From a virus (lineage: Duplodnaviria > Caudoviricetes), in the IMG/VR virus record IMGVR_UViG_3300036804_000165, positions 792 through 64,791 of that record: DNA of 64,000 nucleotides; one strand, 5' to 3'. Numbering within the stretch: the stretch's first letter is position 1; every line of letters begins with the position of its first letter. Positions 3-25,344 of the stretch are shown here, piece by piece. The notes beneath the pieces are model-generated. The model did no database searches, had not been told where the DNA came from, and saw only the letters and a list, made by a program, of their open reading frames with translations. Both the position numbers and the translations under genes were made by a program.

Positions 3-33
3 TTGACAAGTAAATAGGCTATGACGTTATGAA
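3..33 (+). promoter_or_regulatory. Possible sigma70-type early promoter
   Basis: TTGACA at 3-8 in an AT-rich end region upstream of the early operon; -10 element unclear. Confidence 0.3.
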
Positions 34-819: not shown

Positions 820-921
820 CACTCGCTCGCGATAAGCGGACTAAAGCAGGCGGAACGCGCAAGCGTTTGCCTGTTTTAGCCTCCTTATCTGACGATATGG
901 AGCGATCAGAGGACACCTTAA

Positions 922-1191
922 ATGACCGATCAAATGCACGATGTCACCATCTTACAGGTGAATGCACATCGAGCCAAAGTCTTCGTCAACACCGTCTATG
1001 TCGGAAAAATCCGCATTGACGCCGACCAATCGCGCATCTTGTTTCGTTCGTCACGAGACGCATGGAACCGTGCGATCTACGAGATCGATCCCGAGACCGA
1101 CATCGCCAATCTCGCTGACAACCAACTGGATGTTTTCATCCAAGAGGCGATCAAGGCTTACCACCGGTACTACGCTCCCAAGCGCGCTTAG
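922..1191 (+). CDS. Hypothetical protein
   Basis: ATG after box 906. Confidence 0.8.
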   Translation: MTDQMHDVTILQVNAHRAKVFVNTVYVGKIRIDADQSRILFRSSRDAWNRAIYEIDPETDIANLADNQLDVFIQEAIKAYHRYYAPKRA

Positions 1192-1281
1192 CGTACTGAA
1201 CCAGGCGGAAGGCTCCCAGTCTTTGCCTGATTCAGCCTGCTAATCCCAGGACTTACCCCATCCTTCAGAGGACACCGAACA

Positions 1282-1440
1282 ATGAGAACCGCCCTTTTCG
1301 CGCTCGTCTTTGCGGTCGCGATTGCGCTGGTGTTTGCGAGCGCGTTGCTCGCGACCGACCAGCGTTCATCCGGATTGATCTGCATGGACCAGCACACGAC
1401 CGATGGAGCGTGCCACCGCCTCGTGCGCGGAACGCTCTAG
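1282..1440 (+). CDS. Small membrane/secreted peptide (52 aa, not in ORF track)
   Basis: ATG after box 1265; MRTALFALVFAVAIALVFASALLATDQ..CMDQHTTDGAC.. Confidence 0.7.
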   Translation: MRTALFALVFAVAIALVFASALLATDQRSSGLICMDQHTTDGACHRLVRGTL

Positions 1441-1536
1441 CGATTGACAGACCAAAGCAGGCGGAAGGCCCAGCCTTTGCCTGCTTTAGCCTGCCGACCA
1501 TCGCAGGACCCCAGCCTTTTCAGAGGACACCAGACA

Positions 1537-1881: not shown

Positions 1882-1974
1882 GCATACGGAAGCAGCGCCG
1901 ATCGCCATGTCGCCGCTGTTTCCGCCTGCCAATCCGCAGGCGATCGAAGACCGATCGAATCAGAGGACACCGAC

Positions 1975-2295
1975 ATGACGATCTACACCATATCGATGAC
2001 TGACCATTTCGATGCGTCAGGAACCGATGGAGGCTTCCCGTATATCGCTTTGACCGTTTCCCATGAAGGGAAGCCCCAGACCGACATACGGATCGACTTT
2101 GAGACCGATGGAAAGCCGGCGATCTTGAAGGCGACCAATCGCCGATCGCCGATTGATTTCTATCCCATCGGCTTCAGCAGTCACTTGGATCTCGCGTGCG
2201 CCGCCTGGACGTTCATTCAGACCGCGCACGATAGGACCGACAACGAGCAGTATTCCGAGCTTTTCGAGGTTGCCGATTTGCTCTGGACCACATGA
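1975..2295 (+). CDS. Hypothetical protein
   Basis: ATG after box 1960. Confidence 0.8.
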   Translation: MTIYTISMTDHFDASGTDGGFPYIALTVSHEGKPQTDIRIDFETDGKPAILKATNRRSPIDFYPIGFSSHLDLACAAWTFIQTAHDRTDNEQYSELFEVADLLWTT

Positions 2296-2347
2296 CAGCC
2301 GCCTGCCAATCCCGCAGGAAACCCCAACCAATCAGAGGACACCGCAA

Positions 2348-2476: not shown

Positions 2477-2574
2477 CCATACCGAAGCCGCGCGCGCATC
2501 CCCCGATGCGTGTCGCCGCTTCGGCCTGGCTAGCACCAGGGCAATAACGACCACTCAGAGGACACCAAATTCCC

Positions 2575-2859
2575 ATGACACCACCCGAAATCATCATCCC
2601 GATGCTGAGCGCCAATGGCACGCCCGGCACCGCGCTGCTGGACGGCTACATCAATGCCATGGATGCGTTGCGCAAGGCCCGATCGGCGATGGACGAGACC
2701 GCGCCGCACGGGCGGGATTATCCGACGACCGATATCCTGCAAATGGCGACCACGCATCACCGTATCCGCCTGGGCATGATCGACCAGATCATCGACGATT
2801 TCTACAAGATCGGCCTCGCCGTAGGGGCCGAAACGCGCAAGCGCCGCCGCCAGCCGTGA
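2575..2859 (+). CDS. Hypothetical phage protein
   Basis: ATG after box 2555; NGT..L and PHGRDY motifs. Confidence 0.8.
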   Translation: MTPPEIIIPMLSANGTPGTALLDGYINAMDALRKARSAMDETAPHGRDYPTTDILQMATTHHRIRLGMIDQIIDDFYKIGLAVGAETRKRRRQP

Positions 2860-2944
2860 CCGAAGCAGCCCCGATCCTGCGGGATTGGGCGCTGTTTCGG
2901 CCTGGGCTTTCCAGGCAATCACCACCCACTCAGAGGACACCGAA

Positions 2945-3088
2945 ATGAAACGCATCATTCTGGCTTGCTGCCTGCTGCTCGCCGCTTGCGACGATGGCAA
3001 GCCGATCCACGGCATCAGCGGACCGAAAACCTCGCTGCTCAACATGGCGACCATCCATTGTTGCCTCTACGGCAACGGTCGTCGCTGA
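2945..3088 (+). CDS. Small lipoprotein (47 aa)
   Basis: ATG after box 2930; MKRIILACCLLLAAC lipobox. Confidence 0.7.
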   Translation: MKRIILACCLLLAACDDGKPIHGISGPKTSLLNMATIHCCLYGNGRR

Positions 3089-3181
3089 TCGAAGCGCTGA
3101 CCGAAACAGCCCCATCCTCGGCGGATGGCGGCTGCTTCGGCCTGGGCTTTCCAGGGGACCAACCTTCAGAGGACACCAATC

Positions 3182-3433
3182 ATGCAAACACCACAGAAAC
3201 GCGCCCGCGAGCCGGTCTACTGGATCGGCAACCCGGTCGCGTGCGACCTGTGCAGAAAGCCGTTCGGCGAGGCGGTCGGCGTCAAGATCGTCGATGGCCG
3301 GCTCGCCGTGACCGGATCGTGGGGCATTCTCGACCTGGGATGCCATCGCACGCACGGCGTCGGCGTCGGCACGGGCAAGGGCCAGGTCTACGAGCGGCAA
3401 ACCGATGGCCGCTGGCTCAAAGTCGAGGGCTGA
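3182..3433 (+). CDS. Hypothetical protein with CxxC
   Basis: ATG after box 3166; CDLC, GxGxGQVY..DGRWLKVEG. Confidence 0.8.
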   Translation: MQTPQKRAREPVYWIGNPVACDLCRKPFGEAVGVKIVDGRLAVTGSWGILDLGCHRTHGVGVGTGKGQVYERQTDGRWLKVEG

Positions 3434-3436
3434 GCG

Positions 3437-3634
3437 ATGGCGCAATATTACCATCCGCTCGACCCCGACTGCCCGGTCGTCGCCAAATTCTCGACCGATC
3501 TGACCGACGATCCCATGACCGAGGCGATGGGTGCGCCCGTCGATGACATCATGGCGGGTTTCGCGCGCAAGCATCGGGTCAACTGCGAACGCTGCCAGCG
3601 GTACGGGGCGGCGAATATCGAAGTGAGGGACTGA
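3437..3634 (+). CDS. Hypothetical protein
   Basis: Closely coupled ORF with CERC motif. Confidence 0.7.
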   Translation: MAQYYHPLDPDCPVVAKFSTDLTDDPMTEAMGAPVDDIMAGFARKHRVNCERCQRYGAANIEVRD

Positions 3635-3717
3635 CCGCCGGACCGAAGCAGCCCACCCAGCGATGGGTGCGGCTGTTTCGGCCTCGCGATCGTGCGGGGC
3701 ACTCAGAGGACACCATA

Positions 3718-4041
3718 ATGATCACCATGACCCTGTTCAGCGCGGCTAGAACCGCGCTGGTCAATGCCAACGGCCGCGATCTGCCGATCGTCATGCTGGC
3801 GAGCATCGATGCGTTCATCTTCGGCGTGGTCAAGGATACTCCGCAGAATCGGCTGATCAAGCCCGGCGGGATCCATGACACGCGACCGGAGCGGTATGTG
3901 CCGTTCTCCATGCGATCGACGGGCGGCGCGGCGGTGATGTGGGACGATCGCGGCGATAACGATCCAACCCAAGCGATGCAGGAGATCGCCGATTTGATCG
4001 GCTGCATCGCGCGCGATGGCCGCGTCGATCCGCACCCATGA
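3718..4041 (+). CDS. Hypothetical protein
   Basis: ATG after box 3703. Confidence 0.75.
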   Translation: MITMTLFSAARTALVNANGRDLPIVMLASIDAFIFGVVKDTPQNRLIKPGGIHDTRPERYVPFSMRSTGGAAVMWDDRGDNDPTQAMQEIADLIGCIARDGRVDPHP

Positions 4042-4259
4042 AGACCGGACAGACGCTCTGGTGGATAATCGAGCATGCCACCGAGGGCGCGTTCCTCGGC
4101 TACGCGCGACAGCGCCGCACCCGCGAGATGGCGCCGCTGTTTCGTCGCGCCGATGATCGCAAACCGGCGATGCTGTTCGGCTCGATTGCCGCCGCCGCCG
4201 AGGAACTGCAGTACATCACCGTCGATGAGCGGGACTATCAAATCGTGCCGCTCCGATAG
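4038..4259 (+). CDS. Hypothetical protein
   Basis: ATGA overlap with previous gene. Confidence 0.7.
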   Translation: MKTGQTLWWIIEHATEGAFLGYARQRRTREMAPLFRRADDRKPAMLFGSIAAAAEELQYITVDERDYQIVPLR

Positions 4260-4345
4260 CCGGACCGAAGCAGCGCCATCCGCGAGGGTGCCGCTGTTTC
4301 GGCCTCGCCGTCGCTCAAGACGCCGAGGCTCAGAGGACATCGACC

Positions 4346-4711
4346 ATGACCAAAACCACAGAGCCGCCGCGCTTGACCTCGCTCAGCAGCTTGGTGCGCG
4401 AGATCGCGGTGCCGGGGGAGTTGGCCTTCGCGTTCGCCACCGATCGTGTCGAACTGCTCAGGCTGATCAAGCCGAAGCCGCTCGACGCGAGCCAATCCGC
4501 CAAACTCTACGAGATCATCGGCGTGCTGATGGAGACCAACCAGGCATTGCGCAACTACGCCGCAAGGATGACCGTGCTGGCGGAAGACCTGGGCGGCAGC
4601 ATCGAAGAAATCATCGCCGCCCAGGTGGATATCAACGAGACCGCCGCGCACGCCAAGAAGGCAACGGCGCAAGTCAAGCGCCTCGCCAGCTTTCGCGACG
4701 CCGAGGATTGA
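4346..4711 (+). CDS. Hypothetical coiled-coil protein
   Basis: ATG after box 4330. Confidence 0.8.
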   Translation: MTKTTEPPRLTSLSSLVREIAVPGELAFAFATDRVELLRLIKPKPLDASQSAKLYEIIGVLMETNQALRNYAARMTVLAEDLGGSIEEIIAAQVDINETAAHAKKATAQVKRLASFRDAED

Positions 4712-4797
4712 GCCGCTGACCGAAGGCGCCCCCGTCGCAGGAGGGGCGGCGCTTTCGGCCTGGGGCTTCGCCCAGGACACCACCAGAGGACAACACA

Positions 4798-5064
4798 ATG
4801 GCACTCGAACTGGGCGCTTTGCGTAAAGCGCTGATTAACGCCGGAGCCGATACGACAATGGCGGAAACCGCGTCGGAAGAGGTCGCCGGTTATGAGAACC
4901 GTCTGACCCGGCAGACGACGATGGTGCAGGCCATGCTCGCGATCGGCCTGATGATGCTCGCCAGCCAGGGCGCACTCTGGCTGGAGATCGGCAAGCTCGA
5001 CGGCTCGATGGTCGCCTTGAATACCAAGGTCGATCTGATCGCCCGCGCCGTGAACGCTCACTAA
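4798..5064 (+). CDS. Small coiled-coil/TM protein (CCDC90/DUF1640-like)
   Basis: ALRKALINAGAD..AETASEEVAGYENRL followed by a hydrophobic helix. Confidence 0.7.
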   Translation: MALELGALRKALINAGADTTMAETASEEVAGYENRLTRQTTMVQAMLAIGLMMLASQGALWLEIGKLDGSMVALNTKVDLIARAVNAH

Positions 5065-5177
5065 TCCGCCAATCCATACCGCAACGGCTGGCGCGCGCCT
5101 CGCGAGGGGCGCGCGTTTGCTGTTTCGGCCTGGATTTGCAATGACCTGCCAGGGGGCAAACAGAGGACACCATAACA

Positions 5178-5411
5178 ATGAAACTGGACTTAACCCGCTG
5201 CGAAGCCGCGGCCTGGGTCGAAGCCGAGATGACGATCGTCACCAACGGCGTCGATCCCGGTGCGCGGCTGCAAATGGCGCGGGGAACTTTGGCAGCGTGC
5301 CGGCAAGCACCGGACGTCGCGGCCCTCATGCCTCATGCGATCGCCGCCTGCCTGCTGCTGATCGCCCGCCTCGAAGCGACCGAGGATCGACTGAAATCCG
5401 CCGCCGACTAA
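5178..5411 (+). CDS. Hypothetical protein
   Basis: ATG after box 5161. Confidence 0.7.
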   Translation: MKLDLTRCEAAAWVEAEMTIVTNGVDPGARLQMARGTLAACRQAPDVAALMPHAIAACLLLIARLEATEDRLKSAAD

Positions 5412-5509
5412 CCGCATACCGAGGCATCGCCACGGTCTTTCGAGATCGTGCCGATGTCTCGGCCTGGGTTAGCTACACCGCCACCAGGGGCATCAGAGGA
5501 CACCAACAC

Positions 5510-5806: not shown

Positions 5807-5907
5807 GCACCGAACCATTGACGACAGCGCTGCCCGAGCCGTTCGGGAGCGCTTTCGCCTTGGGTTCGCCTGGGGACAATCGAAACCTTTTCAGAGGACA
5901 CCAACCC

Positions 5908-6207
5908 ATGACAGAACAAGAACTGATCGTCGGCGCGCGGGTGCGGCTGATCCGCGACGTGTGCGGCGGTGGCGGCGCAGGCACGATCATTGACACGATC
6001 AAGGCGGGCGAGACCGCTGAGATCGTGGCGATCGACCTGGATGCCGCTATTCAGACTGGCGATGCGGCAGTCGTCGTGCGCTTCGACAACCACCTCGAAA
6101 CCCTGGATGACTGGGAAAACACGCTCAATGTTGGCCTCGACCGCGACGTCATGGACTGGGATGCCACGATCGATGATTTCGAAGTGGAGCGGGGCTTCGG
6201 GCAATGA
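5908..6207 (+). CDS. Acidic hypothetical protein (SH3/KOW-like barrel?)
   Basis: ATG after box 5891; LIVGARVRLIRD. Confidence 0.75.
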   Translation: MTEQELIVGARVRLIRDVCGGGGAGTIIDTIKAGETAEIVAIDLDAAIQTGDAAVVVRFDNHLETLDDWENTLNVGLDRDVMDWDATIDDFEVERGFGQ

Positions 6208-6413
6208 CAGACGCAATGAGCGACAGAGCCATGAAGCTGCTGATCCGCAACATCTGTAAGGCGGCGCTTGATGACGCCAAGGGTGATTTCGCGCATCAGC
6301 GCCAACGGATCGAAACATCCTTCGTCGATGACCGCACGATCCAGATCAAGTTGTTTGGTCCCGGCAACCCGCCACCGTCTTACCTGACCGTCACGGTAAA
6401 AGGGTCGATTTGA
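6204..6413 (+). CDS. Hypothetical protein
   Basis: ATGA overlap. Confidence 0.7.
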   Translation: MTDAMSDRAMKLLIRNICKAALDDAKGDFAHQRQRIETSFVDDRTIQIKLFGPGNPPPSYLTVTVKGSI

Positions 6414-6509
6414 ACCATTGACGACAGCGGCGCCCGAGCCGTTCGGGGCCGCTCTCGCCTTGGGTTCATCCCCGAGGACTACCGAAACCTTTTCAGAGGA
6501 CACCTACAG

Positions 6510-7394
6510 ATGAAAAAACCAGCGGCTCGAAAGACCGTCGAGCAACTGAAATCAGCGGTATGGCCGGATCGGGCAACGGCGCTGGCCGATCTCAAACCGG
6601 CCGGTCTGTCGGCGCGCGGTGCGGACTACGAACTGCGCGAATATAAGACCGGATCGTGGCAGTTAATGCCGCTGACCGACGAGGTCTCGCGTGAGGAGCG
6701 CGTGGTGCAGGCGCTGCGCAAGCAGCCCGGCCAGCCGCCACGCGGGACGGCGAAAGTCATCGTCGAGGCCAAGGCACCCGCCAAGGCCAAGGCGAAGGCC
6801 CCGGCCAAGGCGCCCGCTAAGGCACCGCCAGAGGCTCCGACCAAAACCCCGGCGGAAGCCCCTGCGGCGGCCCCGGTCAAGGCGCCCAACGGCGAGGCCA
6901 AGCCCACGATCGCCCCGCCGGACCCGGCGCCGGTCGCGACGCTGCAAGAACTGTTCTCGCCGATGCCGGAAGCCAACGCGCCGTACGAGATCGTCATCGC
7001 CGAGGGATCACCGGCTTTCCCCCGCCATACCGCGCATACCACGGCGATCGATATCTCGCGGAAGCTGAAAGCCCCGGTGCTGGTGCGCAGCGAGGGTTTC
7101 GAGATCAACCGCGTCTATGACTGGGCGGCGATCGAGAAGGCCCGCAAGGCGTCCCGCGTGCCGGGCAAGCGAGGCGGTCGGCAGGCGGGCGGCGAGAGCA
7201 AGTTTGCCCGCGCCGCGCGTCTGCTGTTCCGCCCCGAAGGCGCCACCGCCGCCGAACTGGAGGTCGAATGCGGCTGGACGCGCGTGGGCCAGCGGCACGT
7301 CAACCGCGCATCGAAGTTCAACGCCAACGCCCGGATCACCATCCTGGGCGACAAGCACTGGCGCCTCGAAGCGCCCAAGCCGACCAAAGCATGA
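6510..7394 (+). CDS. Protein with Ala/Lys/Pro-rich linker and C-terminal DUF3489-like HTH
   Basis: AKAPAKAKAKAPAKAP linker; SKFARAARLLFRPEGATAAELEVECGW. Confidence 0.75.
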   Translation: MKKPAARKTVEQLKSAVWPDRATALADLKPAGLSARGADYELREYKTGSWQLMPLTDEVSREERVVQALRKQPGQPPRGTAKVIVEAKAPAKAKAKAPAKAPAKAPPEAPTKTPAEAPAAAPVKAPNGEAKPTIAPPDPAPVATLQELFSPMPEANAPYEIVIAEGSPAFPRHTAHTTAIDISRKLKAPVLVRSEGFEINRVYDWAAIEKARKASRVPGKRGGRQAGGESKFARAARLLFRPEGATAAELEVECGWTRVGQRHVNRASKFNANARITILGDKHWRLEAPKPTKA

Positions 7395-7479
7395 CTTGAC
7401 TGATGCACCACCCGGACTTCGGGGGGCGGGCGGTGCATCAGCCTGATCATGCCGATCAGGACTTCAGAGGACACCGACA

Positions 7480-7836
7480 ATGAGCGAAATTATTCTGACC
7501 GACCCGATCGGTCTGCGCGAGGCGATTGCCTTCGCGGAGGCCAACGGCTGCCTCGATCAACTCGGCTTCGGCCTAATCCGGCTGCTCCAAACATTGACCG
7601 TCGGTATGACCAAAGACGACGAGCGCACAGCCGAGCTTGGCAGCGACTTCGCCCCTTACAGTCAGCGATTTTGCGTTTGGGACGGCGCGCGTCAGCAATC
7701 CAACGTGGTGCTCGCCGGCGGCTGGATTTACGACGGGCCGAGCGCACCGGGCGATGGCTCGTTCCCATCGCTGTCGGTCAATCTCGCGCGCCTGATGGGC
7801 AATGCGCCGACGCACTCATGGAATGTCCACACATGA
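7480..7836 (+). CDS. Hypothetical protein
   Basis: ATG after box 7464; DFAPYS..GGWIYDG..W.VHT. Confidence 0.8.
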   Translation: MSEIILTDPIGLREAIAFAEANGCLDQLGFGLIRLLQTLTVGMTKDDERTAELGSDFAPYSQRFCVWDGARQQSNVVLAGGWIYDGPSAPGDGSFPSLSVNLARLMGNAPTHSWNVHT

Positions 7837-8045
7837 GCGCCCAACCGATGCACCCCTCCATCACCCTTGAGCGGGTGATGGAGGCGGTCGAGCGGCACAA
7901 CACCACGCTCGACAACCCCGGCTTCTGCCTCGCCTGCGGGGAAGAGGCGGACGGCGTCGAACCCGACGCGCGGCGGCTTGAGTGCGAAGCCTGCGGCGAG
8001 AGCCGGGTCTACGGCGCCGACGAACTGCTGATAATGATGGCTTGA
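7833..8045 (+). CDS. Zinc-ribbon protein
   Basis: GFCLACG..VEPDA..CEACG..VYG. Confidence 0.75.
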   Translation: MSAQPMHPSITLERVMEAVERHNTTLDNPGFCLACGEEADGVEPDARRLECEACGESRVYGADELLIMMA

Positions 8046-8113
8046 CGGAATGGCCCGCATGTCGGAATGACATGTGGGCTATTCGCACAACATTGCGCCA
8101 AAAGCGACGCCTC

Positions 8114-8323
8114 ATGCTCATCGGCTATGTCATCCATACCGGCTTCGACGGCCTCTCGGTGCTCAGCGAGCACGATACCTGGGTCGATCCCAGCGCCGCC
8201 AACGTCCTGATGTTCGCCAGCTATGCCCTGGCCTCGGCGTGGCTGCTGTCGCATCATCGCCAATCACAGGTACTGGCCGGCACGTTGCCGACCGTTTCGC
8301 GACGCGACGATTTGCCCTCCTAA
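8114..8323 (+). CDS. Hypothetical protein
   Basis: Fills the gap before the next repeat; start uncertain. Confidence 0.5.
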   Translation: MLIGYVIHTGFDGLSVLSEHDTWVDPSAANVLMFASYALASAWLLSHHRQSQVLAGTLPTVSRRDDLPS

Positions 8324-8392
8324 CCCATACCGAAACAGCGCCCGCTGCTTCGGCCTGGGGATTAGGCCCTGGGGTAACAGAGGACACCACCA

Positions 8393-9019
8393 ATGAGCAA
8401 ACCAGCCAAAAAGCGTCTCCCGCCGCGCTGGGCGGAGCAGCTTCGCTACGACATGGTTTTCGCCGAGGACGCCATCACCACCAAAGGCGAACTTCCCCCG
8501 GTGTTCGTTCTGCACAACCCAGATCGCAGCGTCACGCCGTTCGTGGTGCCGCTGCGTGATGCCGCGCACAAGCGCCGGGTCTACCAGTTCCTCGCCCTGA
8601 CACTCCTCGCCAGCGGCGCGGTGGGCTTCACGATGATGACCGAGGCGTGGATGCGCGATGAGTTAGCCGAGCCCGGCGAAAGCGCGGAGGCGGCGATGGC
8701 GCGGGTCGAGCGCGACGGGCCGATGCCCAGCCAGGTATCGAACCGCAAAGAGATCGTCAGCATCGTCATGGTCTATCGCGACGACGCAGACGAGCGCCAG
8801 ACCAGCGGCGTGATCGGCGAGATCGTGCGCGCCGACGATGCCTCGGTCGCCGCTATCAAGTGGGAGGTGAACGCGGAAACGAGCGCCGCTGGCGCGATGG
8901 TCGACATCATGCCGGTCATCGCGCCAGACCCCCGCCATCGCGCGGCCGCGGCGCGGCTGCTGATCGAGATCGGACCGACGATCATGCAAGTGCTCGGCAT
9001 CGTCGAGGTGGCGGTATGA
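8393..9019 (+). CDS. Hypothetical protein
   Basis: ATG after box 8378. Confidence 0.8.
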   Translation: MSKPAKKRLPPRWAEQLRYDMVFAEDAITTKGELPPVFVLHNPDRSVTPFVVPLRDAAHKRRVYQFLALTLLASGAVGFTMMTEAWMRDELAEPGESAEAAMARVERDGPMPSQVSNRKEIVSIVMVYRDDADERQTSGVIGEIVRADDASVAAIKWEVNAETSAAGAMVDIMPVIAPDPRHRAAAARLLIEIGPTIMQVLGIVEVAV

Positions 9020-9330
9020 GCCAGACCATCGCCGATATCCACTTCTCGATGCAGATCGAGGATGATCTGGTCGTGCTGACCGACCACGGCTCCGGTTATT
9101 CGATCACCAACGGCGCCGAACTGGTGATCGCAGAACTGGCGCTGCTGCTGGGCGCCGATTTCGCCCGCTTCCGCGTGATCTACCGCGACACCGAGCAGGA
9201 CTGGGACGGCATCGCTCATCACGGTGATCGTTTCATCCGCTTCGTGCCGCTGCGCACCCGTGACCGGCACGTTGCCGTTGACCTCGCCAAACGCGGTGTC
9301 GACGCCAAAGGCGATCCCTGGAAGAAATGA
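9016..9330 (+). CDS. Hypothetical protein
   Basis: SITNGAE.VI..L..RVIYRDT..WDGI motif; ATGA overlap. Confidence 0.75.
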   Translation: MSQTIADIHFSMQIEDDLVVLTDHGSGYSITNGAELVIAELALLLGADFARFRVIYRDTEQDWDGIAHHGDRFIRFVPLRTRDRHVAVDLAKRGVDAKGDPWKK

Positions 9331-9423
9331 CCGAACCGCTGACGACAGCAGCCACCCAGCGCGCGGTGGCTGCTATCGCCTGGGTTCGCCCCGGGGCATG
9401 ACCTTTTTCAGAGGACACCAAAG

Positions 9424-9843
9424 ATGAAAATCACCTTCAACCGCGTCGGTGTGGAGCGTCTGCTCGCGCACACCAAGGCGGCCAAGGACCACAAAAAGAC
9501 CTACGCCGAAGAGGCTGACGGCAAAAAGTGTGTCGGGCCTGCGCTGTGGCTGGTCGGCGATGACGGCGTCTACTTGATGAGCAACGGCAAGCCCGCGCTC
9601 AAGCCCGAGGAGGGCGACGGCCACTTCGTCGTCTATGCCGATCAGATCAACCCCAAGACGATGGCCTTCGACGACTGGTGGGCCGCGAAAAACACCGCGT
9701 TCGGGGGTGACGACGGGGTCGATGGCATCGCCGCCGGCGAGATCGAACAGGCGCTGGCGGCCGCCCCCGGCAAGCCGTTGACGCTGGACCTGACGCCAAA
9801 GGCGATCACCCTGCACGTCGCCGCACCGAAGCGGAAGCATTGA
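9424..9843 (+). CDS. DUF3085-like protein
   Basis: LWLVGDDGVYLMSN..VVYA..DDWW..FGGDDG. Confidence 0.75.
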   Translation: MKITFNRVGVERLLAHTKAAKDHKKTYAEEADGKKCVGPALWLVGDDGVYLMSNGKPALKPEEGDGHFVVYADQINPKTMAFDDWWAAKNTAFGGDDGVDGIAAGEIEQALAAAPGKPLTLDLTPKAITLHVAAPKRKH

Positions 9844-9936
9844 CCGAGGCCGCCCGTCGATTTGCGCATGTGCGCAAATGTGCAAATACGGGCGGCATCG
9901 GCCTGGGCTTCCCCAGGGCTTTCAGAGGACACAAAC

Positions 9937-10944
9937 ATGCAACAACCCCAAGCCTACCGAACCGCCAGCGGCCCGGTGCTGGGCATCGAAGCCTCGCTGC
10001 GTGACATCCGAGAATGGCGGCCCACCGTCACGCAAATCCGCGAGCCGATCCTGACCTTCATGGTCGTCGGCACATCGATGTTCGCCGCCGACATGCCGCC
10101 GCTGGCGCGTGCCTTCGCGCCGACGCAAGACGATGTCGAAGGCATCGCCGAACTGACCGAGGTAGCGGTGCGGGCCGGGCGGCTGATCGATTTCGGCGCC
10201 TGGACCAATGACGTCATCAAGTACGGCGGCAACCGTGGCGGCCCGCTCTACTCGCGCGACGTCATCGGTCATCCGTTCCGCGATCCGTATGTGTTCTTCC
10301 ATACCTGGGAGGACGCATCGGCGGCCTATCTGGTCAACCCGCTGGAGCCGGAGCGGACCGGCGGCGATGTCGAGTGCATCGAACTGCAACCGATCGAGAT
10401 CAAAGGCAATCGGGCGCTGATGATCGGCGATCGGGCGGTGCTCACCCCGGACGCCAGCAACTTCGCGGGATGGTCGAAATACCATTGCCGATCGATGCCG
10501 TCGCTGTGGCGGTATCTGCCGGGCGCCGAGGCGATCAACACCGGCGGCAAGCCTGAAAACGCCGCAGCGGGCAACGTGCTCGACCCGCTGATGACCGCGC
10601 TCTTGATCCTGTCCACCAGGGGCATCGCGCGCGAAACCGTTGCCGCGCCGGACAAGCTGCAGAAGGCCCGCCGCAAGAACGGCAAGCCGCTGATCCCACC
10701 CTATCAACGGGTGGACTCGGCGCCCTACGTCACGGCGATCCAGAATCGCGCGGCACGGGGGCGCGCGCCGTCACAAGGCGGCACGCACGCTTCGCCGGTC
10801 ATGCATCTGCGCATGGGTCATGTGCGGACTTATGCGTCGGGCGTGCAGACGTTCGTGCGCGACGCCATCGTCAACGCCAGCGAGGCAACCCGCGCCGCCT
10901 TCACGATCGGACGCAGTCACTACACGGTCAAACAAAAAGTCTGA
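9937..10944 (+). CDS. Hypothetical phage protein
   Basis: ATG after box 9922; C-terminal GGTHASPVMHLRMGHVR motif. Confidence 0.8.
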   Translation: MQQPQAYRTASGPVLGIEASLRDIREWRPTVTQIREPILTFMVVGTSMFAADMPPLARAFAPTQDDVEGIAELTEVAVRAGRLIDFGAWTNDVIKYGGNRGGPLYSRDVIGHPFRDPYVFFHTWEDASAAYLVNPLEPERTGGDVECIELQPIEIKGNRALMIGDRAVLTPDASNFAGWSKYHCRSMPSLWRYLPGAEAINTGGKPENAAAGNVLDPLMTALLILSTRGIARETVAAPDKLQKARRKNGKPLIPPYQRVDSAPYVTAIQNRAARGRAPSQGGTHASPVMHLRMGHVRTYASGVQTFVRDAIVNASEATRAAFTIGRSHYTVKQKV

Positions 10945-11025
10945 CCGCAGACGGCAGTCGCATGGGCCCGCGCTCATGCGGCTGCCGCCTGGGATCGGCC
11001 CAGGACTCAGAGGACACAACCAAGA

Positions 11026-11481
11026 ATGAAGATTATGCTCGCCGAAGCCGTGACCCTGGACATCAGGCCAGGGGTGCGACTGTCGATTGAGGCCGATGGC
11101 TCGGTGCTGCTCGAACCCGAGGCGCCGCCGGGGGAGCCAGAGCCTCCGACAGTGGCGAAGCCCAAGGTGCTCCGATCGCGTCCGATCACCCGCCGCGCCT
11201 CGGGGGCGATATTCACCGGCACCATCGAGAATGATTTGCTGGTGAAGCTCGCGCAGGAGTCGGATCGCTGGGTCGGCTTCGGCGACGTGGTGAAACTCCT
11301 CTACCCCGAGGTGCCATTGCGAGCCAACGGCAAGCCGACACAGGACTACGAGAACCTCCGTATCGCCCTGCGCCGGCTGCTCAAGCTCGGTGAGGTCGAG
11401 CAGCGCTCCACCGGGGCAGGGAACGCCTCCGGGCGCGGCTTGAAGGCGCAATACCGCATCGTCAAGAAGCCCGTGTCATGA
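11026..11481 (+). CDS. Putative winged-helix protein
   Basis: ATG after box 11007; ENLRIALRRLLKLGEVEQ..YRI. Confidence 0.65.
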   Translation: MKIMLAEAVTLDIRPGVRLSIEADGSVLLEPEAPPGEPEPPTVAKPKVLRSRPITRRASGAIFTGTIENDLLVKLAQESDRWVGFGDVVKLLYPEVPLRANGKPTQDYENLRIALRRLLKLGEVEQRSTGAGNASGRGLKAQYRIVKKPVS

Positions 11482-11582
11482 TCGAGCGCGCGTATGCTCA
11501 GCCATTGACCGAACCCGCGACACGTCGAGCGTGTCGCAGGCTCGGCCTGGGGCTGGTCCCAGGGTTTCAGAGGACACAGACA

Positions 11583-11882
11583 ATGCCAAACATAAGCGAT
11601 TTCGAGGATGCCTTCGCCTTGGCGCGGGCGTATCCCGACACCTTCGAGGCGGTGCCCGCAGCCGAGACCGCGAGGCTCATGGCGGGCGACTGCGTCAAGG
11701 TCTGCCGCAACGACGAGCGATTCTGGGTGCTGATCCACACCAACGCGGACGGCCGGATCAGCGGCGAGGTCAACAACGAGCTGGTCGATCCGCGCAACGC
11801 CGACATACCGTGTGGGACCATCGTCGGCCTGGAATACCGCCATGTCTACCAGACCTACCGGACGCCCAAGGAGCGGCGCTGA
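11583..11882 (+). CDS. DUF2314/YegJ-like protein
   Basis: GDCVKV..ERFWV..G.VNNE. Confidence 0.6.
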   Translation: MPNISDFEDAFALARAYPDTFEAVPAAETARLMAGDCVKVCRNDERFWVLIHTNADGRISGEVNNELVDPRNADIPCGTIVGLEYRHVYQTYRTPKERR

Positions 11883-12550
11883 TGGACAAGCTCACGCCGG
11901 AACAGATGTTTCCGAAGAGCCTGGGACTGATCCGCGCGGCCCTGTCGCAGGCCGAGCGGCTGGCGATCCCGCTGCCCAAGCAGTTGCGCACCCGCCCACG
12001 CGACGCACGGGGCTATCCGATCCCGTTCATCGTGGTGATCGACCGCCGCCGGCAGCCGCAGTTCACCATCAACGACAGCACCCGTGTCACCGCCTGCCGC
12101 ACCCGCTCGCTCTGCGGCATCTGCGGCAAGCGGCTGGACAAAGACCTGTGGTTCGTCGGCGGCGCGCGCTGCTTCCTGCACCCGCGTGGCGCGTTCGTCG
12201 ATCCGCCGAGCCATTACGCGTGCGCCGAATACGCGCTGCGGGTCTGCCCGTTCCTCGCGGCACCCAGCTACGCCAAGCGGATCGACGACCGCAAGCTGCC
12301 GCCGGGCGGGTTGCCCGATGGCATGGCGCTCGGCCGCGTGGACTTCATGCCGCCCGCGCAGCCCGAACGCTTCGGCCTCGGCAGCACGCGCGCCTATCGC
12401 TGGGTGTCGCACGACAGGGACGGGGTCTACGTGGTCGACGCCTGGGACTATGTCGAATGGTGGAAGACCGGCGAGCCGGTCAACGCGCCGGACGGACTGC
12501 CGGCGGATCAGCCGATGCTGCGCAACTGGCGGGGAGGCAACGGCGCATGA
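11882..12550 (+). CDS. Cys-rich hypothetical protein
   Basis: RGYPIPF..LCGICG..DPPSHYACAEYALRVCPFL. Confidence 0.75.
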   Translation: MDKLTPEQMFPKSLGLIRAALSQAERLAIPLPKQLRTRPRDARGYPIPFIVVIDRRRQPQFTINDSTRVTACRTRSLCGICGKRLDKDLWFVGGARCFLHPRGAFVDPPSHYACAEYALRVCPFLAAPSYAKRIDDRKLPPGGLPDGMALGRVDFMPPAQPERFGLGSTRAYRWVSHDRDGVYVVDAWDYVEWWKTGEPVNAPDGLPADQPMLRNWRGGNGA

Positions 12551-12723
12551 GCGAGGGGGAAAAACTGGCACGCGCGGTGCTGCTGTTTTTCCGTGGCGGC
12601 CACTGGTCGGCCTGCGACCGCGAGGTCTGGCAGGCGCTGACCGGCTCGGAGGACGCGACGACGCGGGCGTTGTGCGATCTGGCGCGGCGGGTGCAGGCCG
12701 CCGAGGCAGCGATCCCGCGCTGA
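12547..12723 (+). CDS. Hypothetical protein
   Basis: ATGA overlap, GGAGG RBS. Confidence 0.6.
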   Translation: MSEGEKLARAVLLFFRGGHWSACDREVWQALTGSEDATTRALCDLARRVQAAEAAIPR

Positions 12724-12801
12724 CGATGATGGACCGAGGCAGCACCAGGCACCCCCTGGCTGCTGTCTCGGCCTGGGATCGTCCCAGGAATGGAGGACAC
12801 C

Positions 12802-13401
12802 ATGAGCGATGAACACCAAACTATCCAGCACACGGTGCTCTACGACGCCGCGGCGCGGGCGAACTCGACGCGGGTCTGCGGCGATTGCCAACTGTGCTGC
12901 AAGCTCGTGCCGGTCAGTTCGATCGGCAAGCCGGCGAACACGCGCTGTCGTCACCAGCGCGTCGGCAAGGGCTGTCTGGTCTATCATCAGGCCGGGATGC
13001 CGCCCGAGTGCGACCTGTGGTCATGCAAGTGGCTGCTGGGGGGCGAGACGGCGGACCTGCAACGCCCCGATCGCGTGCATTATGTCATCGACATGATGCC
13101 CGACATGATCGGCGCGATCCCGCCGGGGAGCAGCGAGCGTCACGACGTCATGGTCACCCAGGTCTGGCTCGATCCGGCGTTTCCGTTGGCGCATCGCGAT
13201 CCCGGCCTGCGCGGCTATGCCGAGCAGATCGCCGCGCGCGATCAAATGCCGATCCTGGTCCGCATCGGCTCGTCGGAGGCGTTCCTGCTGGTCGCGCCAT
13301 CCTTGGCGAGTGACGGCCAATGGCACGAGCAATCCATCAACCGCCAGCCCGAGCAGCCCAAGCACGGGATGATGTTTCTCGACCGGATGATGGGAGAATG
13401 A
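12802..13401 (+). CDS. YkgJ-like cysteine-cluster (Zn/Fe-S) protein
   Basis: CGDCQLCCK..C.H..GCLVY..P.EC..W.C.WL. Confidence 0.7.
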   Translation: MSDEHQTIQHTVLYDAAARANSTRVCGDCQLCCKLVPVSSIGKPANTRCRHQRVGKGCLVYHQAGMPPECDLWSCKWLLGGETADLQRPDRVHYVIDMMPDMIGAIPPGSSERHDVMVTQVWLDPAFPLAHRDPGLRGYAEQIAARDQMPILVRIGSSEAFLLVAPSLASDGQWHEQSINRQPEQPKHGMMFLDRMMGE

Positions 13402-13631
13402 CCATGGGCGAGCCAAATTGGCACGACGATCCCGACGTGCAGGCGTACGGGCAGATGATGCAGGCCGCGCTGGTGATGGGGCGCGTCAAGCTCGGCGCGG
13501 ACAAGGCGCTGTCCGTGGCGCTCGCCACGATCGCCGAGGAAATGGAGCGTCATCTCGGGCGGCAGACCGTCGCGTGGGTGCTACGCACCTTCGCCGAGGG
13601 GCTGGCGAGCGGGCGGGGAGGCGAGCCATGA
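13398..13631 (+). CDS. Hypothetical protein
   Basis: Coupled ORF. Confidence 0.65.
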   Translation: MTMGEPNWHDDPDVQAYGQMMQAALVMGRVKLGADKALSVALATIAEEMERHLGRQTVAWVLRTFAEGLASGRGGEP

Positions 13632-14002
13632 CGCGCCGGTACGGCCTGCGGCACTACATCCTCGACGAGGCCGACAACCCGGTGGAACTGCCGATGCCCG
13701 AGGGGGTGCCGCTGCTCGACGCGCTCGCCGCGGTGATCAAGCCGCACGCCCAGTGGATCGCCGATAACGAGGCCCGGATGCGGGTCGCCGAGGATTTTAT
13801 CGACGATGTGCGTGTCTCGACGGTGTTTCTCAGTGTCGGGATCAGCTTCGGCGAGCCGCCGGACATGTTCGAGACCATGCTGTTCAAGCCGGGGCAGGAG
13901 GCGTTCCTGTTCGGCCGCTGCGCCACCTGGAACGAGGCCAAGGGGCTGCACGACTTCGCGGTGGCGATGGTGAAGAACGGAGAACTGCCATGGCAATCGT
14001 GA
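13628..14002 (+). CDS. Hypothetical phage protein
   Basis: VSTVFL..FETMLF..R..TW.EA..H motif. Confidence 0.75.
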   Translation: MTRRYGLRHYILDEADNPVELPMPEGVPLLDALAAVIKPHAQWIADNEARMRVAEDFIDDVRVSTVFLSVGISFGEPPDMFETMLFKPGQEAFLFGRCATWNEAKGLHDFAVAMVKNGELPWQS

Positions 14003-14262
14003 TCAAGATCGTCAGTCGCGGCGACGGCAAGCCGACGCCGCACGCCGAGCGCTACCTCGCGCACTATGATCCCGATGCCGATCCGCTGAACGGCTGGGTC
14101 GAAAGCACCGAGTTCCTCGACGAGGCGCTGCTGTTCGCCAGCATAACCGAGGCGACGGAATGCTGGCGGCGGGTCAGCAAGACGATGCCGCGACGGCTGA
14201 GCGACGGGCGCCCCAACCGCCCGTTAAGCGCCTACACCTGTAGCTTTCAGCCGGTCGACTGA
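13990..14262 (+). CDS. Hypothetical protein
   Basis: DGRPNRPLSAYT motif. Confidence 0.7.
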   Translation: MAIVIKIVSRGDGKPTPHAERYLAHYDPDADPLNGWVESTEFLDEALLFASITEATECWRRVSKTMPRRLSDGRPNRPLSAYTCSFQPVD

Positions 14263-14336
14263 CCCTCGGACGGATGCAGCGCCGCCGCGCGCTGCATCTG
14301 CCTGGGGATCATCCCAGGATTTCAGAGGACACCACT

Positions 14337-15925: not shown

Positions 15926-15973
15926 AGCGCAACACCGCCGGGCGCATAGCCTTGCCGTGTTGCGCTTTTTTTT
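15926..15973 (+). terminator. Rho-independent terminator ending the early operon
   Basis: AGCGCAACAC / GTGTTGCGCT stem followed by T-run 15966-15973. Confidence 0.65.
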
Positions 15974-22375: not shown

Positions 22376-23164
22376 ATGAACGACACATCGCTTGTGCATG
22401 TCCGCGACACGAACGCCCCGCCGCCGCCGACGCCGCTGTCGCCGCGCGAGATCGCCGAATTTCTCGACTACGCCGGCACCCAACTGAAAGACCGCCGCGC
22501 CGAAGTGACGGCGGCGCTGGACGCCAATATCGCCGCGCACCCGGAGATCGAGGACGACGAGGTGCTCGCCACGATCGCGGAAAACATGCGCTTGGCCGCC
22601 GCGCTGGGGCGCACCGCCGAAGAGCGCCGGGTGCAGCACAAAGACCCCTTCCTGGAAGGCGGTCGCGTGGTCGACGGCTGGTTCAAGCGTTTCCGGGCGC
22701 CGCTCGACAAGGCCATGGCGCCGGTGCAGGCGGCGATGGACGCCTACGGCGCGCGCAAGCTGGCGCGTCAGCAGGCCGAGGCCGAGGCGCAGCGGAAGAG
22801 CGCGCAGGCCGAGGCCGATCGCGCCATCGCCCGCGCCTCCGAGGCGCTGCGGCAAGGCGGCTCGGCGAGCGCGGCGCTGGACCTCGCCGCCGACGCCGCC
22901 CTGCGCGCCGAGGAAGCAGAGGAACGCACGCACGCGCGACCGGCCGATCTGACCCGCACCTACAGTGATTTCGGCGCCGTCGCCTCGGTGCGGCAGAAGT
23001 GGAAATGGCGCGTCGTCAATGCGGCGGCGGTGCCGCGCGAGTACCTGATGATCGATGATGATCTGGTCAAAGTCGCGGCCAAGAAACGCGACAGCGCCGG
23101 CAAGCCGGTCGTCATGATCCCAGGCATCGAGTTCTACGCCGAAACCAAAATGGGCGTGCGGTAG
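22376..23164 (+). CDS. Coiled-coil phage recombination-module protein (Gp157-like C-terminus)
   Basis: KDPFLEGGRVVDGWF; W.WRVVN..VPREYL..IPGIEFY. Confidence 0.7.
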   Translation: MNDTSLVHVRDTNAPPPPTPLSPREIAEFLDYAGTQLKDRRAEVTAALDANIAAHPEIEDDEVLATIAENMRLAAALGRTAEERRVQHKDPFLEGGRVVDGWFKRFRAPLDKAMAPVQAAMDAYGARKLARQQAEAEAQRKSAQAEADRAIARASEALRQGGSASAALDLAADAALRAEEAEERTHARPADLTRTYSDFGAVASVRQKWKWRVVNAAAVPREYLMIDDDLVKVAAKKRDSAGKPVVMIPGIEFYAETKMGVR

Positions 23165-23392
23165 ATGCCCCGCGAGCAGAGAAGCGCGTCGCGGCTGCTG
23201 AACGCCGCGCACGCCGCCTTGGTCTTCGTCAGCGACTACCGCGATGAACTGATGCGCTCGTACTGCCTGTGCGACGCGCTGGGCACGCCGCTGCGCGATA
23301 CCGCCGACCCGATCGAAAGCACACACCTGCGCGAAGTCGAGGCGCTGATCGACCGGCTCGCTTCCGCCATCAATGAGGAGCTGAGAACATGA
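23165..23392 (+). CDS. Hypothetical protein
   Basis: In operon. Confidence 0.6.
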   Translation: MPREQRSASRLLNAAHAALVFVSDYRDELMRSYCLCDALGTPLRDTADPIESTHLREVEALIDRLASAINEELRT

Positions 23393-25344
23393 ACGAAACC
23401 ATCAAGCCGCAGCCCGGCCAATCGACCGCGCTGTCCGCGCCGTCGAAAGCCAGCTTTAAGAAACTGGCCGACTGCCGCAGCCTGGGCGAGGCGTTCCAGA
23501 CCGCGGAACTGAAATCCCTGGTCGCCGATGCGGCGCCGAAGTTCATGGACGCGGGCGCGATGCTGCGGACCTGGGTGCAGGCGGCGAACAAGCAGCCGCT
23601 CATCTATCAGGCCGAACTGCGACAGGTCCTGGGCGCGTTCCAATCGCTCGCCTATCTCGGCCTCGTGCCCAACACCCATCTCAACCACGCGCACATGATC
23701 CCGTTCAAGACCAAGCGCTACAACCCGCAGACCAAAAAGCGCGACATCGACGCGGTCGATTTGCAGATCATCATCGGCTACGCCGGTTACATCGAACTGG
23801 GCTATCGCGCCGATGCGATCCTGCCGCCGCATTGCGACGTGGTCTACGACGAGCGGCTGGAAGGGTTCCATTACTCGTATGGTTCAAATTCGCATCTTGA
23901 GCATGGCGGCAAGCCGTATGATTTCCGCCCGAGCGGCGATCCGCGCTACGCCTACGCCTACGTCAAGCTGAAAGGTGGCGGCGAGCAATTCGAGGTCATG
24001 CCGTGGGTCGATGTGATGCGGATCAGGGATCGCTCGCAGGCGTACCGCACCGCCCTGGCGGCGAAGGAAAAGGCCGAGCAGGAAGGCTGGCGCATTCCTG
24101 TCACCTGGACCGAGGCGCCGTGGGTGCGCGATCAGGCCGAAATGGGCAAGAAAACCCCGTTGCGGCGGCTGTTCAAAATCCTGCCGAAATGTCCCGAACT
24201 GCGCGCGGCGGCGGCGCTGGAAGACGCGATCGACAGCGGCAAGCGGCTTGACTTCGGCCCGGTGATCGACGGCACCGCCTCGCCGCTGGAAGGCGGCGTG
24301 CCCGAGGCGCAGGAGGATGATCCCCCGGCGGCGGTCGATCCCGCGACCGCCTACGGCGTGCGCGGCAGTGCGCCCCCCATGGAGGACAAGCGCGCGGTCA
24401 GCACGCGCAAGGCCGAGCCGCCCACCGACGAGCACGGCTCGTGGATCGAGGAGCAGGAGCGCGACGAGCGCGCGGCGCAGACCCGCAGCCCGGCCGCGCC
24501 CAAGGTTGCGTCGGGCCCCGCGCAACAAAATCCGAAAACCGAGCCGCCCCGTCAACAGACGGCCGCGCCGGGTTTCGAGGCGGTGCTGATCGACGCCGGC
24601 GGCGAGGCATCCGATGCGGTCTACGATAGCCCCGCCGCGTTCGCCCGCGCCTACATGGCGCTGTGGCACGTCGCGGATCAGGCGGAGGACGCGAGCGCGA
24701 TCGACGCGCTGGCGGAGTACAACGCCGACGCGCTGGCCGACGCCGCGCAAGGGAGCGAGGATGCCCAGCGCATCCTGGCGGCGACGCAGGCGCACAAGCC
24801 CGCCGACGAGCCGGTCAAACAAAATGTTCGACCGCCGATCGTCGCGGTCGAACCGCCGGAAGATCGCGGCAAGACCTCCTGGCCGGGCTACATCAAGCTG
24901 CTCAAGGCGACGTTGGCGGAGGTTACGGCGGAGGAGTTCGGCGCCTGGGCCGCCGCCCAGCGGGCCGCCCTGGAACGCTGTCCGACCGCGCAGCGGGTGC
25001 TGGCGGTGCGCGCGATCGCCGAAACGGCGGGGATGCGCAAGGTCGAACAGCCGCTGTGGCTCGGCGATCTGATCAAGGCGAAGGAGAAACCCCCGGCGAG
25101 CGCGCCGCCGCCCGCCGAGCCGCCCGCCGAGCCGGTCACCGACGCGGACGAGAAATGGGTCAACAACCGCATCGGCGAAATGCACGAGATCACCACGCGC
25201 GACGCGTTCGATCAGCTTGTCGGATCGGGCGCGGTGCGCACCATCATGGCGCGGCTCAGGCGCGAGAAGCGCGCGCTGTTCGATCGCGCCGATGCGGCGT
25301 TCTCCGCCAAGCATCAGGCGCTGCCCCCGCCGGAGGCGGTGTGA
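23389..25344 (+). CDS. recT: RecT-family single-strand annealing protein with long C-terminal extension
   Basis: LGLVPN..AHMIPF..QIIIGYAGYIEL..PW....EMGKKTPLRRLFKILP. Confidence 0.8.
   Translation: MNETIKPQPGQSTALSAPSKASFKKLADCRSLGEAFQTAELKSLVADAAPKFMDAGAMLRTWVQAANKQPLIYQAELRQVLGAFQSLAYLGLVPNTHLNHAHMIPFKTKRYNPQTKKRDIDAVDLQIIIGYAGYIELGYRADAILPPHCDVVYDERLEGFHYSYGSNSHLEHGGKPYDFRPSGDPRYAYAYVKLKGGGEQFEVMPWVDVMRIRDRSQAYRTALAAKEKAEQEGWRIPVTWTEAPWVRDQAEMGKKTPLRRLFKILPKCPELRAAAALEDAIDSGKRLDFGPVIDGTASPLEGGVPEAQEDDPPAAVDPATAYGVRGSAPPMEDKRAVSTRKAEPPTDEHGSWIEEQERDERAAQTRSPAAPKVASGPAQQNPKTEPPRQQTAAPGFEAVLIDAGGEASDAVYDSPAAFARAYMALWHVADQAEDASAIDALAEYNADALADAAQGSEDAQRILAATQAHKPADEPVKQNVRPPIVAVEPPEDRGKTSWPGYIKLLKATLAEVTAEEFGAWAAAQRAALERCPTAQRVLAVRAIAETAGMRKVEQPLWLGDLIKAKEKPPASAPPPAEPPAEPVTDADEKWVNNRIGEMHEITTRDAFDQLVGSGAVRTIMARLRREKRALFDRADAAFSAKHQALPPPEAV

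Follow-up and report, generated by a model that had tools for sequence, protein, structure and literature searches.

What are two similar stretches of about 90 bp doing on either side of a two-gene unit in the early region of a phage genome: do they mark a unit that has moved, or are they a regular part of how the genes are laid out? The stretch of DNA in question (hereafter the window; 64,000 nucleotides) covers bases 792-64791 of one 64,791-bp virus record, the 64.8-kb genome of an uncultured, siphovirus-like phage from soil. The first-pass annotation explained the repeats, at about 5812 and 6412, by local duplication, gene conversion or insertion of circular units through short-homology recombination. 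They proved to be two members of a set of 24 intercistronic modules, which lie in an arm of 16 kb with all its genes on one strand. With moderate confidence, we read the copies as the standard linkers between the cistrons of this arm, neighbours among which have been homogenised by local exchange; the linkers would act in the RNA, and the recombination enzyme is one that we infer. The modules are structured linkers found throughout the phage lineage, probably functional, and not merely scars of recombination.

Anatomy of the repeated module

The modules follow one order: a stop codon, a long bulged hairpin (H1), a short hairpin (H2, mostly CCTGG..CCAGG), the 12-nt box TCAGAGGACACC and the ATG of the next gene. 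Pairing in the hairpins begins 0-13 nt past the preceding stop codon, and in the predicted folds H1 is directly abutted by H2 and the box region is unpaired. The modules end in ATG (23/23), with a spacer of 4-12 nt (median 8) from GAGGA to the ATG. The core of the box, CAGAGGACA, occurs 34 times when up to one mismatch is allowed, against 9.3 ± 2.9 expected, and none of 100 shuffles reached 34. Its 24 exact copies are all on the + strand, between 343 and 16064. An ATG follows 23 of them; the 24th copy (16056) lies past the terminator of the arm and lacks a start codon, and one further module (12724) bears the box variant TGGAGGACACC.

The focal locus and the third module of the same type (D) are laid out as follows.

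5807..5907, + strand: D-type module upstream of the unit; fold z -2.16; box TCAGAGGACACC at 5891-5902; ATG at 5908
5908..6207, + strand: g5908, first gene of the unit, a 99-aa ORFan with no PHROG or Pfam family
6204..6413, + strand: g6204, a 69-aa ORFan, translationally coupled to g5908 by an ATGA overlap and lacking a module of its own
6414..6509, + strand: D-type module downstream of the unit; fold z -3.64, 0 of 200 shuffles folding as well; box at 6493-6504; ATG at 6510
6510..7394, + strand: g6510, conserved early protein of 294 aa, used as the anchor when relatives are compared
9331..9423, + strand: third D-type module, upstream of g9424 (DUF3085)

The repeats had been called near-identical. 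They are real, but that description is too strong: from GAACC to the end of the box the gapped alignment of the focal pair has 81 matches, 11 mismatches and 2 gap columns in 94 columns (86%). Without gaps, 5812-5867 and 6412-6467 are 91% identical over 56 nt and 5869-5920 and 6471-6522 are 81% identical over 52 nt, with exact common runs of 18, 16, 13 and 22 nt. The similarity runs from the upstream gene's stop codon to a few bases short of the ATG, and thus spans exactly the intergenic gap. The modules do bracket a two-gene unit (5908-6207 and 6204-6413), and the copy noted at about 9333 is indeed of the same subtype, although farther off, with 62 and 65 matches to the focal copies in 94 columns (about 66-69%). 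Both focal copies have the same 16-nt H1 apex, a part that elsewhere differs from module to module, which suggests that the pair is identical by descent.

Repeats that form hairpins, lie between genes and reach a high copy number resemble non-autonomous mobile repeats with a preference for nearby gaps, such as repetitive extragenic palindromes (REP) or miniature inverted-repeat transposable elements (MITE), and the D type has short terminal inverted matches. Such an origin is extremely unlikely here, because each copy occupies the full distance between stop and ATG and provides the next gene with its only ribosome-binding site, and every copy is co-oriented with transcription. Neither target duplications nor, among the scanned proteins, a transposase were seen, and the family was not found in the scanned bacterial genomes.

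The arm as one operon

The left 16 kb is an arm of about 38 small genes, all on the + strand, and those without a module are coupled to the preceding gene. At E <= 0.001, no PHROG family was found for 34 of the 38 early-arm proteins (ORFans). There are no paralogues among the 38, the top match having an E value of 0.001 across 26 aa, and tandem gene duplication was ruled out as the source of the repeats because the early genes lack paralogy. Sigma-70-like sites are absent from the + strand of 1-16500 (one on the - strand, versus 2.5 ± 1.6 in shuffles), and T-tract terminator-like sites in the arm are at chance level (15 versus 12.6 ± 3.8). One canonical terminator closes the arm past its last gene:

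15927..15973, + strand: canonical intrinsic terminator with a 9-bp outer stem, GCGCAACAC/GTGTTGCGC, and T8

With no promoter-like site on the + strand, terminators at chance level and a single canonical terminator at the end, we read the arm as one long operon and the modules as its intercistronic linkers. The gap at 8046-8092 is the sole sizeable one in the arm without a box or a typical module; a low-depth relative in the source sequencing run skips 8076-8159.

Covariation of the hairpins

The hairpins are selected as structures, and both stems covary. Twelve modules fold with z scores of -2.1 to -5.1, and for seven of these none of 200 shuffles folded as well. In the D type an outer stem encloses H1: it is CGAACC/GGTTCG in module 5807-5907 and TGAACC/GGTTCA in module 6414-6509, where the first base comes from the TGA stop codon of g6204. 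The three copies of the D type pair in 45 of 45 cells, compared with at most 44% paired in slid controls; four pairs have changed on both sides, and no pair has a change confined to one side. Of these four double changes, three distinguish the focal copies (in the outer stem C-G to T-A, in H1 C-G to G-C and T-A to C-G).

The same holds beyond the D type. In 80 modules from the window and six relatives, hairpins built from a module's own arms have -30.3 kcal/mol, against -14.6 ± 6.4 with swapped arms, and the own 3' arm is the best partner of all 80 in 54 modules. The largest helix domain has a median of 19.5 pairs (range 10-33). H2 is present in 65 of the 80 modules, in which it takes the covarying variants CCTGC/GCAGG, CCTGA/TCAGG, CCTTG/CAAGG and CCTCA/TGAGG.

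Conservation of the linker in the lineage

Comparison of 5000-12000 with 50,697 phage records (blastn) gave no match, and no relative was found by protein scans of viral contigs seeded with g6510 and g5908 or by a scan of metagenome contigs with a 3-sequence g6510 alignment. Relatives were recovered by DNA pattern scans (box and module) of viral and metagenome contigs. The same box arrays, on one strand and in the order stop-H1-H2-box-ATG, are present both in the viral contigs L004, L005, L006 and L048 and in the soil metagenome contigs L015, L019, L022/L023, L030 and L032. In all, the linker architecture and its box are known from no fewer than eight further soil contigs, viral or metagenomic. 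L006, L022 and L023 stem from one phage; L006 and L023 have 100% identity over 9,999 nt, and being identical the pair holds no micro-evolution data. Homologues of g6510 are found in L004, L005, L015, L030, L032, L036 and L048.

Early proteins common to these relatives are 27-72% identical, and gene content and order differ from the window in L004, L005, L015, L030 and L032. The closest relative, L030, has 67-76% nucleotide identity in common genes. The box TCAGAGGACACC is invariant at a depth where the proteins have nearly lost their similarity, having drifted to about 30% identity. By terminase the nearest isolates are Rhizobium phages (58-59% aa identity); AGAGGACAC was not found in the nearest of them, Rhizobium phage RHph_N28_2, and g9937 had no match among the phage records. 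A module-pattern scan of 185,579 bacterial and archaeal genomes found no arrays and nine single-box loci in unrelated phyla, which we take as chance matches and therefore as no lead to a prophage or a host.

Box-like sequences also stand at three places outside the arm:

22359-22378, + strand: box-like GAGAGGACACC ahead of the exonuclease gene
25680-25700, + strand: box-like AAGGACACC ahead of a ParB-like gene
30461-30476, - strand: box-like CAGAGGACACC ahead of a - strand gene

None of the three has H1 or H2, and the other genes there use ordinary GGAG/GAGG.

A box so strictly kept might be a DNA operator. The stoperators of Cluster A mycobacteriophages are asymmetric, 13-bp sites, and by comparison with them a phage repressor could bind the box and silence the arm, with the hairpins either incidental or terminators. 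The box is likewise asymmetric, invariant over 12 nt and of single orientation (in three relatives 0 forward versus 12, 6 and 5 reverse copies; controls 0), its conservation goes well past the 4-5 nt that a Shine-Dalgarno sequence needs, and it occurs without hairpins ahead of the three genes outside the arm. The position of the box is, however, fixed to the ATG by the short spacer, as expected for a translation signal, and the covarying stems show that the hairpins are not incidental. The scanned proteins included no member of a repressor or integrase family, and the absence of arrays from the scanned bacterial and archaeal genomes gives no sign of a prophage state. Taken together, an operator appears quite improbable, and we keep to the box as part of a linker that serves translation.

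A 24-nt motif, GTGTGTCCTCCTCTGAAATATCCT, lies in non-coding DNA upstream of the early arm (window 189-212, + strand) and is identical in L030, where it is on the reverse strand about 550 nt ahead of the first box. The motif holds an imperfect complement of the box (an anti-box), and its opposite strand resembles an extended box. As no open reading frame lies behind it in the window or in L030, it was ruled out as the ribosome site of a leftward gene; it may belong to the control of the box.

Similarity between neighbouring modules

It had been suggested that neighbouring modules form sub-families, and all the signatures quoted for them, including CAGGCGGAA..TTTGCCTG, CCGCCTGCCAATCC and TTCGGCCTGGGCTTTCCAGG, were found in the sequence. 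Apart from the D type, the modules fall into these groups.

820..1536, + strand: sub-family A, modules 820-921, 1192-1281 and 1441-1536, H1 CAGGCGGAA..TTTGCCTG
1882..2347, + strand: sub-family B, modules 1882-1974 and 2296-2347, mutual best partners, H2 CCTGCCAATCC(C)GCAGG
2477..5509, + strand: sub-family C, eight modules (2477, 2860, 3089, 3635, 4260, 4712, 5065 and 5412), H1 base CCGAAGC..GCTTTCGG
7395..14336, + strand: remaining modules (7395, 8324, 9844, 10945, 11482, 12724 and 14263)

Signature CCGCCTGCCAATCC is found in the B modules 1882 and 2296 and signature TTCGGCCTGGGCTTTCCAGG in the C modules 2860 and 3089; in sub-family C the H1 base abuts H2 CCTGG..CCAGG.

In the window, similarity does track position. 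The adjacent module is the best partner in 11 of the 24 modules; the permutation mean is 2.0, and a count of 11 or more came up in 2 of 10,000 permutations. The farther apart two modules are in rank, the less alike they are (Spearman -0.33, 0 of 10,000), and the mean score of adjacent modules is 0.47 against 0.29 ± 0.03 (reached by 0 of 10,000). With fixed 85-nt segments adjacency holds for the window (0 of 5,000) and likewise for its closest relative L030 (50 of 5,000). The first seven modules of L030 have a different H1 type in common. On its reverse strand, 950-3800, eight successive modules, one of them with the box variant ACTGAGGACACC, have a distinct short H1, CCCCnnGnCGCCGAGnCnnGGGG followed by TTTGGCG; this is a second, independent position-linked sub-family.

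Orthologous places in the window and L030 separate the effect of the neighbour from that of the gene. At three of five such places the best partner within the genome scores far above the ortholog. Box 5891 scores 1.24 within the window versus 0.06 to its L030 ortholog, and box 6493 scores 1.24 versus 0.22. The L030 modules ahead of the g5908 and g6510 homologues are of an L030-specific type and are each other's best partners, and the modules of the two g5908 paralogues of L030 do not match each other. A module therefore tends to resemble its neighbours rather than to go with its gene, which is the pattern of concerted evolution by local exchange.

The sub-families could instead be functional classes, in which selection holds the same variant wherever neighbouring genes need the same level or timing of expression. 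The module types are architecturally distinct, the D type having the outer stem GAACC/GGTTC, and D-like modules recur in L004 and L032, indicating that the type is old. We nevertheless doubt this explanation and give it only a small chance: the identical apex and loop of the focal copies (16 nt) are required by no structural class, orthologous genes bear different types in the window and in L030, and in different phages D-like modules stand ahead of unrelated genes. Local exchange between neighbours accounts better for this distribution.

History of the bracketed unit

Recent insertion of the two-gene unit, or its excision as a small circle, through the flanking modules has to be weighed in its own right, with the D-type copies as the duplicated target. 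The unit is flanked by direct repeats with the exact runs given above, and the phage has both RecT and an exonuclease. In T4-type phages, mini-circles are documented for promoter-early stem-loops (PeSLs) in the available excerpt of the describing paper (PMC2839356). The presence of the unit is also variable, as the idea of a mobile cassette would have it: g5908 homologues are found in L015 and L030, and none at E <= 0.1 in the complete 70.6-kb relative G002, although a g6510 homologue is present there, and g6204 has only a 12.9-bit match in G002. Moreover, the gene between the g5908 and g6510 homologues is different in each of the three phages. In L015 the gene coupled to g5908 lies upstream and encodes 79 aa, in L030 it lies downstream and encodes 96 aa, and in the window it is g6204. 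None of these are alike, and among 14 other proteins (2 from the window, 12 from L030 and L015) g6204 has no homologue at E <= 0.1.

However, the place of the unit is old. The g5908 homologues, with 34-39% aa identity, stand directly upstream of the g6510 homologue in both L015 and L030 (L030 has a second g5908 paralogue 1.5 kb off, with 46% aa identity), and the g6510 proteins of the three linked phages are 28-40% identical. The linkage in three phages, together with the failure to find g5908 in G002, indicates a unit that is old at its place and variably present, and linkage common to phages whose g6510 proteins are this diverged makes a recent insertion unlikely. The focal copies are themselves already 13 of 94 columns apart, including the three compensated stem pairs. 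In L030 the same two places hold another module type, again alike, which argues for homogenisation and not for one insertion. Of the origins first proposed, gene conversion or local exchange fits best, as the L030 places carry another type, and recent insertion of the unit is unlikely.

No joint between 5812 and 6412 was seen in the one DNA run that contains the phage, probably its source; as that run was available as contigs only, the absence is not evidence. Thirteen joints were listed in the run, at depths of 2.3-15 versus about 97, nine of them with sides of 20-24 nt and the others of 38-159, and we read these low-depth joints as other phages with module motifs or as low-depth relatives. 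A 496-nt contig of the source run (depth 4.6) has a g15106-like gene directly ahead of a g11583-like gene, the two being 115 nt apart. As the window lacks this order (window 15337-15556 and 11667-11825), the contig points to a rearranged relative in the sample.

A proposed mechanism and the points that bear on it

It is most likely that each linker acts on the mRNA. The linkers would separate units of one to four genes within the single long early operon, and H1 and H2 would insulate the message and probably permit its processing or stabilisation. By analogy with the RNase III sites of phage T7, H1 would give the upstream cistron its 3' end structure, and H2 would do so at the 5' end of the downstream cistron. 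The unpaired box TCAGAGGACACC would then supply the Shine-Dalgarno core GAGGA, a median of 8 nt ahead of the ATG, and its further conserved bases suggest a trans-acting factor.

The linkers may also be substrates for homologous exchange, either by the RecT and exonuclease of the phage or by host recombination, because they have identical stretches of 10-25 nt in common and lie a few hundred bases apart. Short-range gene conversion and unequal exchange would homogenise neighbours, which would give both the position-linked sub-families and the 86%-identical pair around g5908-g6204. The earlier attribution of a RecT-family protein to the phage was borne out, and its gene lies beside that of an exonuclease, a small open reading frame sitting between the two (span 22376..25344, + strand):

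22376-23164, + strand: exonuclease gene (PHROG exonuclease, E 1.1e-12)
23389-25344, + strand: RecT-family annealing protein (PHROG RecT-like, E 1.7e-39; Pfam RecT, 67.3 bits, cutoff 24)

Several observations weigh against this reading, in its RNA part or in its exchange part. The folds carry no strand bias that would point to RNA: the sense strand is the more stable one in 23 of 46 modules (Wilcoxon p 0.71), and the G.U counts do not differ. The hairpins might instead form in single-stranded DNA. No Rfam family matches the module, with one irrelevant sub-threshold match. Adjacency is not significant in five of seven arrays (L004, L022, L032, L015 and L005), in which 589-1,858 of 5,000 permutations reach the observed mean, so that local homogenisation is either not general or the test is underpowered with 7-12 modules. 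At two of the five orthologous places the ortholog is the best cross-genome match, and thus modules are also inherited vertically. Gene shuffling is frequent in the window, L004, L005 and L030, yet it is not confined to modules: g3437 follows g3182 in the window and precedes the g7833 homologue in L030, at a coupled junction without a module. Since order differs also at such junctions, the modules are not the sole breakpoints. Finally, no relative with more than 90% nucleotide identity was found, and nothing closer than about 76%. Among the listed sequencing runs that hold the sequence there is one DNA run and no RNA run.

Comparison with known systems

ORFan genes for host takeover have their main reservoir in the early regions of phages, and to our knowledge the capture and expression of such genes are known in detail only for T4-type phages, with their PeSLs. 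The linker array would be a second, unrelated design, in high-GC soil phages, with an invariant 12-nt box, two covarying hairpins and evidence that neighbouring copies evolve in concert. No description of the element was found in the open-access full-text literature on phage early-region repeats. It belongs neither to the PeSLs of T4, nor to the start-associated sequences (SAS) of mycobacteriophages and their extended form (ESAS), nor to the RNase III sites of T7, which resemble each other in structure more than in sequence, as the modules do; these three are nevertheless its closest analogues.

Integron attC arrays also consist of co-oriented, promoterless small genes separated by imperfect palindromes in which structure is kept and sequence is variable, and in which neighbours are more alike. 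The arm has the same layout of co-oriented promoterless small genes split by palindromes with neighbours more alike. Unlike integrons, the phage has no integrase among the scanned proteins, none of 23 modules has RYYYAAC/GTTRRRY cores, and the modules, unlike attC sites, also bear a ribosome-binding site.

The PeSLs of T4-type phages are described in Arbiol et al. 2010 (PMC2839356) and Comeau et al. 2014 (PMC4122927), both of which we cite from excerpts. As in the excerpt of the former, short cassettes of a stem-loop and an expression signal flank ORFans in a hyperplastic region, the copies are alike enough to recombine, and the intervening gene content varies among relatives (PMC2839356). A PeSL has, however, a strong sigma-70-like early promoter and a working terminator (PMC2839356), whereas the arm has no promoter-like site on the + strand, its terminator-like sites with a T tract are at chance level, and the conserved element is a ribosome-binding box. 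Mini-circles and indels between near-identical phages were demonstrated for PeSLs (PMC2839356); the comparison here is of contigs only.

The closest likeness to the box is found in the SAS and ESAS of Cluster K mycobacteriophages, as far as the excerpt of Pope et al. 2011 (PMC3203893) describes them. SAS are 13-bp sequences 3-7 bp ahead of the start codon, mostly ATG, and like the box they are asymmetric, with a Shine-Dalgarno core a few bases ahead of the start and a preference for ATG (12-13 nt in the two systems). Both occur in one orientation and in the non-structural arm only (for the box, the early arm save the three box-like sites), both are conserved ahead of unrelated genes, for SAS across sub-clusters, and in both a trans-acting factor is suspected (PMC3203893). 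As in ESAS, where an inverted repeat often precedes at a variable spacing, hairpins stand upstream. The differences are that the box TCAGAGGACACC is unlike the SAS consensus GGGATAGGAGCCC and the host phylum is another, that ESAS arms are a conserved 17 bp whereas module arms vary and covary, and that the modules have two hairpins at nearly all boxes, starting at the stop codon (PMC3203893). Position-linked sub-families are a feature of the modules that does not figure in the excerpted description of SAS/ESAS (PMC3203893).

The RNase III sites of T7, according to the excerpt consulted (PMC4858673), are likewise hairpins of irregular shape and about 20 bp, which separate the cistrons in a long early transcript made from the left end of the genome. 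There are five such sites in 7 kb (PMC4858673), compared with 24 modules in 16 kb here, and the modules add a second hairpin and a fixed box; RNase III cleavage is proposed here by analogy.

A wider proposal, which we put forward only tentatively, is that the linker has a dual role. It would be both an expression socket for captured open reading frames and a RecT-type homology patch through which cassettes are added, removed, swapped or homogenised, with a dedicated phage factor reading the box. If this were true, the arm would be a promoter-less and integrase-less counterpart of integrons and PeSLs. In practice, the box and H2 provide a simple sequence tag by which this phage lineage and its early genes can be searched for in metagenomes, and the modules are a defined element for tests of translation control and mRNA processing in Alphaproteobacteria-type hosts, although the practical value is modest until the host is known.

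Other features of the genome

The right 30 kb, on the - strand, encodes terminase, portal, major head protein, tail proteins and endolysin. The genome has a direct terminal repeat of about 260 bp (genome 1-260 and 64530-64791, the latter at the end of the window). The repeat is imperfect, with at least one short stretch unlike between the ends, and because its ends differ it may represent true terminal redundancy rather than an assembly wrap-around. A 240-aa protein encoded at 19615-20337 (- strand) contains a stretch resembling the Pfam family RMF (ribosome modulation factor), with 27.2 bits and thus below the cutoff of 27.9; judged from this similarity, it could be a phage-borne ribosome-targeting domain.

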